64,000 nucleotides of DNA, from NCBI GenBank assembly GCA_963816355.1, contig CAWFKH010000001.1, positions 64,001 through 128,000 of the forward strand, read 5' to 3'. The position numbers and the translations under genes were made by a program. Shown piece by piece: positions 7,906 to 56,035 of this stretch. Position 1 is the stretch's first letter. Every line of letters begins with the position of its first letter. This stretch comes from an uncultured Gemmatimonadales bacterium. Its GTDB lineage: Bacteria; Gemmatimonadota; Gemmatimonadetes; Longimicrobiales; RSA9. A model generated the notes under the pieces. That model worked only from the letters and a program-made list of their open reading frames with translations. It made no database searches and was not told where the DNA came from.

Positions 7906-8673
7906 TCAGGTCGCGGCGTCCGGGGTGTCGGCGCGGCGCCGCTCCGTCCACTTCACCAGCCAGATGCTGACTTCGTAGAGGAGCAGCAGCGGCAGCGACA
8001 TCAGCACCTGCGAGAAGACGTCCGGAGGCGTGAGCACGGCGCCGGCGATGAAGATGAGCACGATGGCGTAGCGTCGGCCGCGCCGCAGCATGTCGGACGT
8101 GACGACGCCCAGCGCGCCGAGCACGAGCATCACGACGGGCGTCTCGAACGCGACGCCGAAGCCGAGCAGCAGCTTGAGGACGAAGCCGAGGTACGGCCCG
8201 ATCGTGATCATCGGTTCCAGGCTCTCCTGCTGGAAGCCGGTGAGGAAGCGCAGCGCGATCGGGAGCACGCCGAAGTAGCCGAGCGCCATTCCCGCCACGA
8301 AGAGCACCAGCCCGAAGTAGAGCGCCGGCACGATCGCCCGCTTCTCCTCGCGCTTCAGCGCGGGCGAGACGAACGACCAGACCTGGTGGACGATCACCGG
8401 GAAGGCGAGCAGCACGCCCACCATGAGGGCGAGCCGCAGCGTGATGAAGAACGGGTCCGCCGGGCTGAGGTAGCGCAGCTTGCCGCCGCTCAGCAGCGGG
8501 CGGATCGGCCGCACCAGCAGCCCCAGCACGTCGAAGCGGCTCACCACGACGAAGCCGACGACGGCGCCGGCCGCCAGCGCCAGCAGGCTCCACAGGATGC
8601 GCCAGCGCAGCTCCTCGAGGTGCTCGAGGAACGGCATCTCGTCGCCCGTTCCGACCCGGCCTCGCAGTTTCAC
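7906..8673 (-). CDS. tatC: Twin-arginine translocase subunit TatC
   Basis: MPFLEHLEELRWR, FVSPAL, GVAFETP, AVLTPPD, LLYEVSI; about six TM segments. Confidence 0.96.
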   Translation of the reverse strand: MKLRGRVGTGDEMPFLEHLEELRWRILWSLLALAAGAVVGFVVVSRFDVLGLLVRPIRPLLSGGKLRYLSPADPFFITLRLALMVGVLLAFPVIVHQVWSFVSPALKREEKRAIVPALYFGLVLFVAGMALGYFGVLPIALRFLTGFQQESLEPMITIGPYLGFVLKLLLGFGVAFETPVVMLVLGALGVVTSDMLRRGRRYAIVLIFIAGAVLTPPDVFSQVLMSLPLLLLYEVSIWLVKWTERRRADTPDAAT

Positions 8674-8686
8674 GCCCGCACGCTAC

Positions 8687-8787
8687 GCCGCCGCGCGGGC
8701 ACGCACAAGCCGCCGCGCGGGCACGCACAAGCCGCCGCGCCGGCACGCACAAGCCGCCGCGCCGGCGCGCACAAGCCGCCGCGCCGG
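8687..8787. repeat. 22-bp tandem repeat, about 4.6 copies (GCCGCCGCGCSGGCRCGCACAA)
   Basis: Units start at 8687, 8709, 8731, 8753 and 8775 (partial), followed by (CACGG)3. Confidence 0.9.
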
Positions 8788-52956: not shown

Positions 52957-53451
52957 CTACTCGCGGACCGCGTCCAGGTTGACCACGCGCTCGGCGAGTC
53001 GGGTGAGCCTGTGGTCGGTCTCACCCTCTTCGTCCAGCGTCTTCTGCAACAGCTCCGCCTGGTCCGAGAAGCCGAGCGTGTTCGCGTACGTGCGGGCGCA
53101 GCCGTAGCCGGCCATCTCGTAGTGCTCGACGCGCTGCGCCGCCGCGATGAGGCCCGCGTCCAGCGCGTCCGAGTCGCCCTTCGCCTTCAGCACCTGCTCA
53201 CCCTCGCGGATGATCCCCTTCATCGCCTCGCACTCCTGGCGCGACGCCTTCTCGCCGAGCTTCTCGAAAACCTGCTCCAGACGCCGCGTGTGGCCCTTCG
53301 TCTGGTCGAGGTGCTCGTTGAACGCCTCGCGCAACTCCGGGTGCTTCGCCGCACCAGCCATCTTCGGCAGCGCATCGACGATGCGGTTCTCGGCGTCGTA
53401 CAGGTCGCGCAGCTGCTCGGTGTAGAGCTGCTTCAGTGATTCCAGCTTCAT
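52957..53451 (-). CDS. Ferritin-like DUF892 protein (YciF-like)
   Basis: LRDLYDAE, ALPKM, HLDQT, CEAMKGII.EG, AAAQRVEHYEMAGYG, TLDEEGETD; GGAGG RBS. Confidence 0.93.
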   Translation of the reverse strand: MKLESLKQLYTEQLRDLYDAENRIVDALPKMAGAAKHPELREAFNEHLDQTKGHTRRLEQVFEKLGEKASRQECEAMKGIIREGEQVLKAKGDSDALDAGLIAAAQRVEHYEMAGYGCARTYANTLGFSDQAELLQKTLDEEGETDHRLTRLAERVVNLDAVRE

Positions 53452-53589
53452 GTGACTTCCTCCAGGCAGGATTCCAGAACGAAGAAGCCGCCGCAGGCTG
53501 TAACCGGCGACGGCCCCATGCTTCACGAATCGCGGCGTCCCGCCCCGTGAGCGGAACGCCGGGCGGCGAAGCCGCCGTCGTCTCAACCG

Positions 53590-53605
53590 TGCAAGAGCAA
53601 TACCG
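53590..53605 (-). promoter_or_regulatory. Putative sigma54 promoter of the DUF892 gene
   Basis: Minus strand CGGTATTGCTCTTGCA: GG-N8-TTGCA. Confidence 0.55.
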
Positions 53606-53610
53606 GGGGG

Positions 53611-54040
53611 CTCGCCGGGGCGGCGAGGGAAGCTCGCCCTGGCGGCGAGGGAAGCTCGCCTGGCGGCGAGGGGAGCTTCGCCTGGCGGCGAAGGGAAGCT
53701 CGCCTGGCGGCGAGGGGCCGCCTTCGGCGGGGAAGCTCGCCTGGCGGCGAGGGGCCGCCTTCGGCGGGGAAGCTCGCCTGGCGGCGAGGGGCCGCCTCCG
53801 GCGGGGAGGCTCGCCTGGCGGCGAGGGGCCGCCTTCGGCGGGGAAGCTCGCCTGGCGGCGAGGGGCCGCCTTCGGCGGGGAAGCTCGCCTGGCGGCGAGG
53901 GGCCGCCTCCGGCGGGGAGGCTCGCCTGGCGGCGAGGGGCCGCCTTCGGCGGGGAAGCTCGCCTGGCGGCGAGGGGCCGCCTCCGGCGGGGAGGCTCGCC
54001 TGGCGGCGAGGGGCCGCCTTCGGCGGGGAAGCTCGCCTGG
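53611..54040. repeat. Hairpin array A: 4 short single-hairpin units plus 9 x 37-bp tandem units
   Basis: Unit CTCGCCTGGCGGCGAGGGGCCGCCTTCGGCGGGGAAG starting at 53699, 53736 ... 53995; partial copy at 54032. Confidence 0.95.
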
Positions 54041-54056
54041 CAGCGGTCAGGGCCCG

Positions 54057-54581
54057 GGGCTTCCCTCGCGAAGCGAGCCTCCCCGGCCGAAGGCCGACCC
54101 CCGCGCGCAGCGCGGACCCCGCCGCAAGGCGGGCTTCCCTCGCGAAGCGAGCTTCCCCGGCCGAAGGCCGGCCCCCGCGCGCAACGCGGACCCCGCCGCA
54201 AGGCGGGCTTCCCTCGCGAAGCGAGCTTCCCCGGCCGAAGGCCGGCCCCCGCGCGCAACGCAGACCCCGCCGCAAGGCGGGCTTCCCTCGCGAAGCGAGC
54301 TTCCCCGGCCGAAGGCCGGCCCCCGCGCGCAACGCGGACCCCGCCGCAAGGCGGGCTTCCCTCGCGAAGCGAGCTTCCCCGGCCGAAGGCCGGCCCCCGC
54401 GCGCAACGCGGACCCCGCCGCAAGGCGGGCTTCCCTCGCGAAGCGAGCTTCCCCGGCCGAAGGCCGGCCCCCGCGCGCAACGCGGACCCCGCCGCAAGGC
54501 GGGCTTCCCTCGCGAAGCGAGCTTCCCCGGCCGAAGGCCGGCTCCCCTTGCCGAAGGCAAGCTTCCCCGGCCGGAGACCGG
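54057..54581. repeat. Hairpin array B: 6 x 74-bp tandem units plus partial and degenerate hairpins
   Basis: Unit GGGCTTCCCTCGCGAAGCGAGCTTCCCCGGCCGAAGGCCGGCCCCCGCGCGCAACGCGGACCCCGCCGCAAGGC at 54057, 54131, 54205, 54279, 54353, 54427; partial at 54501. Confidence 0.95.
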
Positions 54582-54583
54582 CT

Positions 54584-55024
54584 TCACGCAATCTCCAGCG
54601 CCTCCGTGCGCTCCTTCAGCGCTTCGTTCATCTCCTCGAAGCCCTCGATCAGCGGTCGGCGGACGACGGCGCTGAGGAAGGGGACGCCGATGCCGATGAA
54701 ACGCTCGCGCTGGACGAACCGGACGCTGACGTCGCCGATCGGCTCGATCGCGAAGACGTGTTCGCCGTCGAAGAAGCCGGGCAGCAGGAGCTGTCCGATC
54801 CAGCGCAACTCGCGACCGGGATCGAAGTGGATGATGCGGGGGCGCACCTCGATGGAGCGGAAGCGGGGCAGGTCGAGCCGGACGTGCAGCTGCGATCCCT
54901 TCTCCGCGCGCCCCTCGACGAGCCGGATGAACGGATTCCACGCGGGGTACGCGTCGAAGTCCGTGAGGATGCTCCACACCCGCGCGGCGGGGGCGTCGAT
55001 CTGGATGTCGGTACGGATCTCCAT
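54584..55024 (-). CDS. SRPBCC (polyketide cyclase/dehydrase-like) protein
   Basis: IQIDAPAARVWSILTDFDAYPAWNPFI, ELRW.G, FDGEHVF, FEEMNEALK; GAGGAG RBS. Confidence 0.9.
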   Translation of the reverse strand: MEIRTDIQIDAPAARVWSILTDFDAYPAWNPFIRLVEGRAEKGSQLHVRLDLPRFRSIEVRPRIIHFDPGRELRWIGQLLLPGFFDGEHVFAIEPIGDVSVRFVQRERFIGIGVPFLSAVVRRPLIEGFEEMNEALKERTEALEIA

Positions 55025-55147
55025 GGCTCTCCTCGTCTGCCCTGCACTACCCCGCCCGGACCCGCCCTGGTTTCAAGCGACGCCGCACGGCCGCGCTCCC
55101 GGCATCCACGCGTCGGCGCCGGCGCGTCGGCGCCCGCCGGGCTCGGC

Positions 55148-56035
55148 TCAGGCGAGGGAGCGGAGCAGCTCGATCATGCGGACATCCCACGGGTCGGGGG
55201 TCGGGTCGTCGGCGCCGACGTCGGTCTCCTTCTGCGGCGTCTCGAGGATGAGCGGGATCCCGGCGGCGCGGCGGTCGTGGAGCAGCCAGCCGAACGGCTC
55301 GGCGCCGATCATGCCCTCGCCGATCAGCGCGTGCCTGTCACGGTTCGAGCCCAGATCGCCTTCGCTGTCGTTCAGGTGGAAGAACGACGGCGGCTCCCCG
55401 GTCTGCTCTTCGAAGGCGTCGAGCACCTCCGCGAGCGCGGCGCGCGAAGAGGCGATGTCGTAGCCCGACGCATAAAGATGGCAGGTGTCGAGGCCGTAGC
55501 CGGCGCGGGCACGGTGCTTCGCCGGGATCGCGCCGAGGATCGCCGCCACCTCCTCCGGCGTGCGGCCGACGGTGCGACCGGCGCCGGCGGTGTTCTCGAC
55601 CAGCAGCCGGGTCGGTCCGTCGACGGCCGCGAGCGCGTCGGACATCGCGCGCGCGACGCGCTCGAGCGCCGCGCCGGTGTCACCCCCCCGCGCCGAGCCG
55701 GGGTGGAAGCAGACGGCGCCGATCCCGAGCGTGGTCGAGCGCTCGAGCTCCTTGGCCAGGCCGGCCGCGGCGCGCGCGTACTTGGCGTCGTCCGACGTCG
55801 CGACGTTCAGCACGTACGCGGCGTGCGCCATCACGTGGGCCGGCGAGAGGCCGGTCTGCTCGAGCGCCGCGCGGAACCGCTCCACGCGCTCGGGACGGAT
55901 CGAGGAGCGGTCGCCGTAGAACTTCGGGATCGCGGTGAAGATCTGGAGCGCCGACATGCCGGCGGCGGCCGCGCGGCGCGCCGCCATGTCGATGCCGCCG
56001 TTGTCGATCGTGTGCGCGCCGAGGATTCGCTGCAT
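55148..56035 (-). CDS. nfo: Endonuclease IV
   Basis: LGAH, LQIFT, HAAYVLNVA, FHPGS, LVENTAG, LDTCHLYASGY, FHLNDS, DRH..IGEG, LILETP. Confidence 0.93.
   Translation of the reverse strand: MQRILGAHTIDNGGIDMAARRAAAAGMSALQIFTAIPKFYGDRSSIRPERVERFRAALEQTGLSPAHVMAHAAYVLNVATSDDAKYARAAAGLAKELERSTTLGIGAVCFHPGSARGGDTGAALERVARAMSDALAAVDGPTRLLVENTAGAGRTVGRTPEEVAAILGAIPAKHRARAGYGLDTCHLYASGYDIASSRAALAEVLDAFEEQTGEPPSFFHLNDSEGDLGSNRDRHALIGEGMIGAEPFGWLLHDRRAAGIPLILETPQKETDVGADDPTPDPWDVRMIELLRSLA

Follow-up and report, generated by a model that had tools for sequence, protein, structure and literature searches.

The stretch of DNA analysed here, referred to as the window, spans 64,000 nucleotides (C1:64001-128000) of a 3.85-Mb, 97%-complete host genome (G000) with 72% GC in six contigs. 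Two arrays of small hairpins, oriented away from each other, lie between two host genes as follows.

52957..53451, minus strand: DUF892 ferritin-like gene (PF05974), a host gene downstream of the insertion and outside the element
53452..53605, minus strand: leader of the DUF892 gene, host DNA kept in array-less relatives, with a CTTGCA motif at 53590-53597
53606..54045, minus strand: array A (left arm), containing 22 perfect hairpins, of which 20 have GNA/GNNA loops on the minus strand; its outer end (53611-53714) consists of five single CTCGCC-type units, followed by 37-bp two-hairpin repeats in two variants
54041..54056, no strand: the short centre between the arms, without a leader motif; its counterpart at C5 is a leader plus a four-helix-bundle gene, about 470 bp
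54057..54583, plus strand: array B (right arm), built of 74-bp repeats of four hairpins each, with single units at the outer end (54527-54582); of its 27 perfect hairpins, 22 have GNA/GNNA loops on the plus strand
54584..54586, minus strand: TGA stop codon of the SRPBCC gene, abutting the outermost B hairpin and in register with the linkers (TGAAG for GGAAG)
54584..55024, minus strand: SRPBCC/polyketide cyclase family gene (PF10604), a host gene upstream of the insertion and outside the element

The coordinates, units, linkers and opposite polarity of the arrays were as described in the original prediction, and loop-blind tiling identified 49 perfect hairpins (22 in A and 27 in B) where about 50 had been claimed. 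The edge units were likewise found to pair perfectly, both CTTCGCC/GGCGAAG (53676-53693) and CTTGCC-GAA-GGCAAG (54547-54561). When hairpins with a stem of at least 4 and a C-G closed GNA/GNNA loop were counted, 42 were obtained, all 20 in A lying on the minus strand and all 22 in B on the plus strand. Dinucleotide shuffles (n = 500) gave a mean of 2.2 and a maximum of 8 such hairpins.

Tandem Repeats Finder reported 10.7 copies of a 37-bp period at 53643-54045 and 6.6 copies of a 74-bp period at 54057-54547, in agreement with the periods first described. The special meaning once given to the exact half did not hold up: the two periods correspond to two and four modules of 18-22 bp, each a hairpin with its linker, and other arrays have other best periods (21, 39, 53, 55, 63 and 111, for example), so the ratio requires no special cause. 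Unit variants in array A alternate in an ordered fashion. In array B, CCGCG-CGCAA-CGCGG had been listed with the GNA/GNNA-type loops, but it is instead a mismatch derivative of CCGCGC-GCA-GCGCGG; the original is kept in the innermost unit (54101-54115), and the mismatched unit was amplified together with its mismatch. The folding energy of two B units is ordinary for their composition (z -0.49), and that of the outer part of A is unusual (z -4.84). Neither a sigma-70 promoter nor an intrinsic terminator was found in 53300-55200, and Rfam returned no match in the window at gathering score, with five weak, chance-level hits at E <= 10. As had been noted, there are no CRISPR features: the arrays contain no unique spacers, their units recurring within and between arrays, and none of the ten neighbouring genes scanned is a cas gene.

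The SRPBCC gene was found in 5 of 72 relatives searched, and DUF892 is directly next to it in three of the five, none of which carries arrays. In those three array-less relatives the same leader motif stands 16-29 bases past the SRPBCC stop; in the window, the outer end of array A falls about 7 bases short of the conserved CTTGCA motif in the DUF892 leader. Because the two genes are adjacent without arrays in three relatives, this comparison of gene order shows that the 980 bp are an insertion in the host lineage at a stop codon. The relatives are too distant for exact placement of the junctions, and no target-site duplication was seen. Within the DUF892 leader (53452-53605), about 100 bases are conserved in two related genomes (G012 and G046), with possible pairing and no Rfam match; the leader could be a promoter or a structured leader.

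The hairpin grammar recurs throughout the genome. An earlier loop-blind scan of hairpin density was swamped by GC-rich coding DNA. A search of the genome by grammar, as the original prediction had advised, was combined with BLAST using the window arrays, and identified 28 related arrays in G000, 8,317 bases in all; control loop classes gave at most one cluster of five or more. With the arrays oriented by CTTCC, there are 402 hairpins with 43 stem types, 343 of which carry GNA/GNNA loops on the CTTCC strand, compared with 3% in random genome segments. This recurrence bears out the earlier view of a structure-constrained, REP/BIME-like mosaic with DNA-type loops, and related genera keep the loops with other linkers. 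The arrays are polar: higher-order repeats occupy the inner part, and the outer end is made of single units with a variant of the terminal linker (19 of 28). Using a hexamer gene caller made for this analysis, 13 of the 28 outer ends were found within 12 bases of the stop codon of a gene reading into the array; one other follows the end of a tRNA-Lys, a called gene overlaps three more, and the other eleven face a start. Sixteen arrays form eight opposite-strand pairs, all eight pointing outward around centres that range from 0 to about 900 bases, and the remaining 12 of 28 are solo. Outward pairs in G000 also enclose an unrelated gene, a hydrolase. Array ends differ between copies both in G000 and in the related genome G041, with no fixed terminus found and no target-site duplication seen in the copies of either genome, and no excision joint across arrays was seen in low-depth contigs. 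In a wobble-pair count aimed at the working strand, true G-G mismatches in the hairpins number only about a dozen, most of those listed being parser artefacts, and GC skew was too patchy for assigning replication strands.

The loops themselves bear on whether the arrays work as DNA or RNA. Among the 343, there are 210 GNA, 88 GNYA and 45 GNRA loops. Sequences such as GCGNAGC and GCGNNAGC are described as unusually stable, nuclease-resistant DNA mini-hairpins whose RNA forms are much weaker, and they are found in phage origins and in the N4 promoter (PMC13037366). Because 298 of the 343 loops are GNA or GNYA rather than the GNRA of RNA, and because they face outward whichever direction the neighbouring gene is transcribed, the loop sequences favour action at the DNA level. 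The low share of GNRA loops (45 of 343) counts against the RNA-tetraloop reading originally entertained, and the complementary C-UUCG-G, previously put forward as a stable RNA loop, is not such a tetraloop because, as read from the sequence, it is out of register with the stem on the opposite strand.

A gene linked to this repeat family was missed by the original prediction, as it lies outside the window, on contig C5. PF05635 matches occur at four places in G000.

C5:369995-371262, arms of the C5 cassette: intact gene of 132 residues at C5:370461-370856, with leader and gene filling the space between the arms
C3:763763-764270 (L033), second family: gene at C3:763763 with arms of 13-bp TCCCGC-GT units; 18 arrays, control 0; gene-less arrays, for example, at C2:86139-86498, C6:102033-102310 and C6:450049-450294
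C4:131278-132060 (L031), third family: gene at C4:131432 with CAGACCCC-type arms, the outer end conserved
C3:134672-134971 (L034), fourth match: scores under the cut-off; several conserved residues are altered, and there are no arms and no repeat family

The C5 arms belong to the window's hairpin family and form an outward-pointing pair; of eight window unit types tested, three are present in them and five are absent. The C5 protein passes the Pfam PF05635 and TIGR02436 cut-offs, and its single-sequence model contains four helices (pLDDT 85). A structural search with this model ranked 2RLD, 2GSC and the Avd protein of diversity-generating retroelements (DGR) first, none at E <= 0.001, and a profile of eight relatives of the C5 protein matched 2GSC at 1e-11. 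In the second family, four of four opposite-strand pairs point outward, giving the same layout without hairpins. In the third, one 12-mer occurs at least 58 times at at least 27 places, and GNA hairpins are present in some copies; for this family, a looser regular expression had a high control (26) and was left unused. Three repeat families in one genome each closely bracket their own four-helix-bundle gene, and each is also dispersed without it. Such an arrangement of one gene to one repeat family is that of REP-RAYT systems, with a different protein.

A leader motif resembling GCTATGG-N4-TGCCC precedes 46 of 64 four-helix-bundle genes (L031, L032 and L118, for example), often about 40 bases before the start codon, the motif having been derived from the same 64 sequences in which it was counted. 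It is probably a promoter element. The idea that empty pairs keep the leader was dropped, as the motif is at background in empty centres, including the one before uvrA described below. In sequencing run X1, the contig with the C5 gene (L018:4431-4892) had a depth of 6.2, compared with 2.2-3.6 for other identical contigs, which is at most a hint, contig depth not being copy number.

A DNA search with the arrays matched 6 of 40 relatives, three of them with real rows of hairpins in which the loops are kept and the linkers changed. An exact two-unit pattern gave 40 matches over GTDB, none of them an array, and one match over metagenome contigs, again no array, with no close relative of the C5 protein among those contigs; the exact sequence family was thus not found outside G000 with the queries used. 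Among 68 loci from G012, G046 and genus g35, opposite-strand neighbours point outward in 20 of 21 cases, the exception being an overlap, and three centres contain a four-helix-bundle gene or remnant. An outward pair in G012 encloses a UPF0047 gene, which is unrelated. One arm-spacer-arm unit of G041 is found again at 13 further sites with 76-96% identity, the spacer of about 55 bases being common to the copies and the outer modules variable, a pattern of sequence similarity that shows the gene-less form spreading as a unit in that genome. At L206 (G041:C72:6092-7200), a complete gene-less arm-spacer-arm unit lies nested, directly upstream of a four-helix-bundle gene with a downstream hairpin arm.

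In 50 of 72 matching genomes, the region upstream of uvrA was inspected. Hairpin arrays stand there in G000, G012, G041, G048, G073 and G004, and weaker ones in G072 and G077, each with its own genome's linker; a four-helix-bundle gene is present in G012 and G061. This recurrent site (L020:3684-4388, L170, L185, L319, L335, L337, L330, L321 and L324) was seen filled, empty but paired, with solo arrays, or with a hairpin-less gene. At other recurrent sites (L037, L039, L042, L051 and L296; L031 and L314), the same host-gene pair encloses four-helix-bundle genes of different clades, with different arms.

PF05635/TIGR02436 genes occur in 65 of 73 genomes of the host's family. A three-hairpin pattern was clearly above control in G046, G063, G012, G073, G048 and G004, and in the eight genomes without TIGR02436 reached at most 14 against a control of 10. 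G000 itself gave 66 against a noisy control of 56, and an excess is lacking in most gene-bearing genomes, so these counts do not establish that gene and pattern co-occur across genomes. G077 is without a TIGR02436 match, yet has its short hairpin cluster before uvrA. Hairpin-armed genes were predicted beforehand in G063, G073, G048 and G004 and found in three of the four; in G004, where arrays are present, none of the four genes examined (of eight) has hairpin arms. The arm linkers in G046 and G048 match the dispersed arrays of the respective genome. Hairpin-armed genes recur in nine genomes and account for 14 of 106 four-helix-bundle loci examined. On the protein tree they are scattered (11 changes compared with 13.3 in shuffles), and a single clade of hairpin-type proteins was not found. 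Over all 106 loci there is no significant outward bias, with 40 hairpins pointing outward and 35 inward (p 0.64).

Several known systems share part of this organization. REP/BIME/REPIN-RAYT (TnpA-REP) systems are described as having extragenic palindromic units, inverted doublets with variable spacers, solo remnants, placement beside stop codons, a gene in single copy with its own type of repeat on either side, and several gene-repeat families per genome (PMC3337134, PMC3733652). Multi-copy extragenic palindromes in inverted doublets are present here as well, with 28 arrays and all eight pairs in one orientation. Unlike in those systems, the Y1 transposase (PF01797) has no match in the 97%-complete G000; among five array-bearing relatives, G041 has two Y1 matches, neither bracketed by arrays. 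The two GIY-YIG and three DUF559 matches in G000 are not bracketed by arrays either, and no reverse transcriptase (PF00078) match was found in the genome, leaving the HUH/RAYT nuclease or reverse transcriptase that had been suggested as a partner without a candidate there. About 1 kb before a DUF559 match lies an unrelated 69-bp tandem repeat of about 2.5 copies with a GNA-loop hairpin (L341:300-480; G000:C6:36135-36315). Neither the GTAG nor the CGTC tag of REPs occurs in the window arrays, and near the 28 outer ends GTAG was found 2 times and CGTC 9 times.

ORF-bearing 23S rRNA intervening sequences, as described for Coxiella and Leptospira (S23p/PF05635; PMC4990558), share the protein family, a sporadic distribution and a gene whose borders can pair, although here own partners pair better than shuffled ones overall and not in the window. 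The present elements differ in lying between protein genes rather than in rRNA, in having hairpin arrays as borders and in their many gene-less copies; the C5 copy contains the PF05635/TIGR02436 ORF, and the window copy is without a gene. Avd of DGRs (PDB 4DWL, 8UB8; PMC10053308) has the same fold by comparison with the predicted model, at a TM-score of 0.71 to the C5 query, but is only 12-14% identical, and no template or variable repeat was seen here. Streptomyces telomeres are described as rows of tightly packed palindromes capped by GCA/GGA sheared loops on 3' overhangs (PMC7205883), and the loops here likewise lie on the strand with the outward 3' end; the window arrays are internal rather than terminal, so that the analogy is structural only. 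A MITE with terminal inverted repeats would have fixed termini and a target-site duplication; copies in G000 and in G041 end at different points and none showed a duplication, and the relatives are too distant to place the junction exactly. The Gut-1 RNA motif (Rfam RF01706; PMC2864571) gave no covariance-model match at gathering score or at E <= 10. The element resembles REPIN-RAYT in its working and has its protein in common with rRNA intervening sequences and Avd, but it departs from each of them in a defining feature.

The window arrays are best read as a non-autonomous, REPIN-like derivative of a four-helix-bundle cassette. We consider it fairly probable that they are the inverted arms of a gene-less cassette copy, and that the protein would recognize such arms as single-stranded DNA mini-hairpins and aid their spread. 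This reading draws on the grammar shared by 28 arrays, the C5 arms enclosing an intact gene, the array-less relatives and the outer end at a stop codon. That a gene-less cassette copy inserted at the SRPBCC stop is very probable, the insertion being evident from the relatives and the cassette origin being deduced. A cognate role in trans is predicted for the C5 protein with a reasonable degree of likelihood, and with less for its details. Against the cassette reading stand the scatter of armed genes on the tree, the outward pairs around unrelated genes and the five of eight unit types absent from the C5 arms, and a two-armed element does not account for the 12 solo arrays unless they arose by decay.

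Under the cassette reading, the copy would have inserted at the SRPBCC stop codon and lengthened later, with its arms assembled from a genome-wide stock of modules of about 20 bp by recombination between copies. Two- and four-module repeats may have arisen locally through slippage or unequal exchange, and the stems may have stayed perfect through selection for a folded binding site together with template switching. The C5 protein, as an Avd-like ring, is predicted to bind the linker plus GNA hairpin on the strand with the outward 3' end, to protect the bound strand and pass it to host repair enzymes, and to serve gene-less copies in trans as RAYT serves REPINs. No catalytic activity is known for this protein. 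A pentamer, as 2GSC is described (PMC4990558), is assumed for the C5 protein.

The most serious alternative, which we nevertheless regard as unlikely, is that the cassette acts at the RNA level, as a 23S rRNA intervening sequence transferred to mRNA would: the arms would form a long stem, RNase III would excise it, the protein would bind RNA as Avd does, and gene-less pairs would remain as processing or stability signals. Members of the same S23p/PF05635 family do lie in stem-bordered rRNA intervening sequences that are excised by RNase III (PMC4990558). By computed pairing energies, the arms could also pair in RNA form: a left arm with a right arm gains 40-170 kcal/mol, compared with about 6 for two left arms, and overall own partners have more 14-mers in common (p 0.0004) and form better pairs (p 0.02) than shuffled partners. 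The outer ends close to stop codons and the one after a tRNA would also suit such processing. However, arrays A and B have no 14-mer in common and are among the weakest-pairing arm pairs, the solo arrays have no partner arm, the loops are of DNA type and face outward regardless of transcription, and the unrelated 13-bp family has the same outward layout without hairpins.

Less likely still, the arrays could be REP-like repeats that owe their spread to an enzyme unrelated to the cassette or since lost, or solely to host recombination, with the four-helix-bundle gene a passenger caught between arms. The lack of a single clade of hairpin-armed genes and the unrelated genes between outward arms would fit a passenger, as would the two Y1 matches in G041; CGTC-type REPs are likewise described without a known transposase (PMC3733652). 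This is countered by the three repeat families of one genome that each closely bracket their own gene, by the recurrence of hairpin-armed genes in nine genomes, and by the lack of a Y1 match in G000 and in four of the five array-bearing relatives, with none of the Y1, GIY-YIG and DUF559 matches examined bracketed by arrays. A neutral local tandem repeat, or a copy number inflated by assembly, is very improbable: the mismatched B unit amplified along with the rest does look neutral, no read set spans the window arrays and the contigs of runs X1-X3 leave them mostly uncovered, but 28 arrays with 43 stem types obey one loop rule, unit variants alternate in order in A, and a short-read contig of run X1, which may be the source sample, joins unique DNA to a C5 arm with no difference.

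More broadly, and tentatively, four-helix-bundle (Avd/S23p-like) proteins may be the master proteins of transposase-free selfish repeats, each reading its own linker and driving gene-bearing and gene-less copies into gene ends. If so, the linkers here would be decorated, like miniature telomeres, with nuclease-resistant mini-hairpins of DNA on the strands whose 3' ends face outward, and three systems of this kind would coexist in one genome. Many bacterial intergenic repeats have no known mobiliser, and the PF05635 family is very common, with solved structures and no known function. A helix-bundle cassette with repeat arms was not described in the full-text literature searched, which covered few subscription journals, or in the main text of a 2026 preprint on intergenic features, whose supplements could list such motifs. 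The locus contributes an empty ancestral site, a near-complete genome with three gene-repeat families, and a recurrent site upstream of uvrA where the arrays carry each genome's own linker. In the arrays, GNA mini-hairpins are used naturally and on a large scale; such hairpins were previously known from Streptomyces telomeres and from the origins and promoters of phages. With three proteins, three dispersed repeat families and one degenerate armless gene, the genome offers a built-in test of specificity.

Elsewhere in the window, at 8673-8787, a 22-bp tandem repeat of 5.3 copies with 92% identity is unrelated to the hairpin arrays. On contig C6 of the same genome (G000:C6:406157-409191), about 20 tRNA genes lie on one strand within 3 kb, reminiscent of the tRNA arrays of mobile elements.
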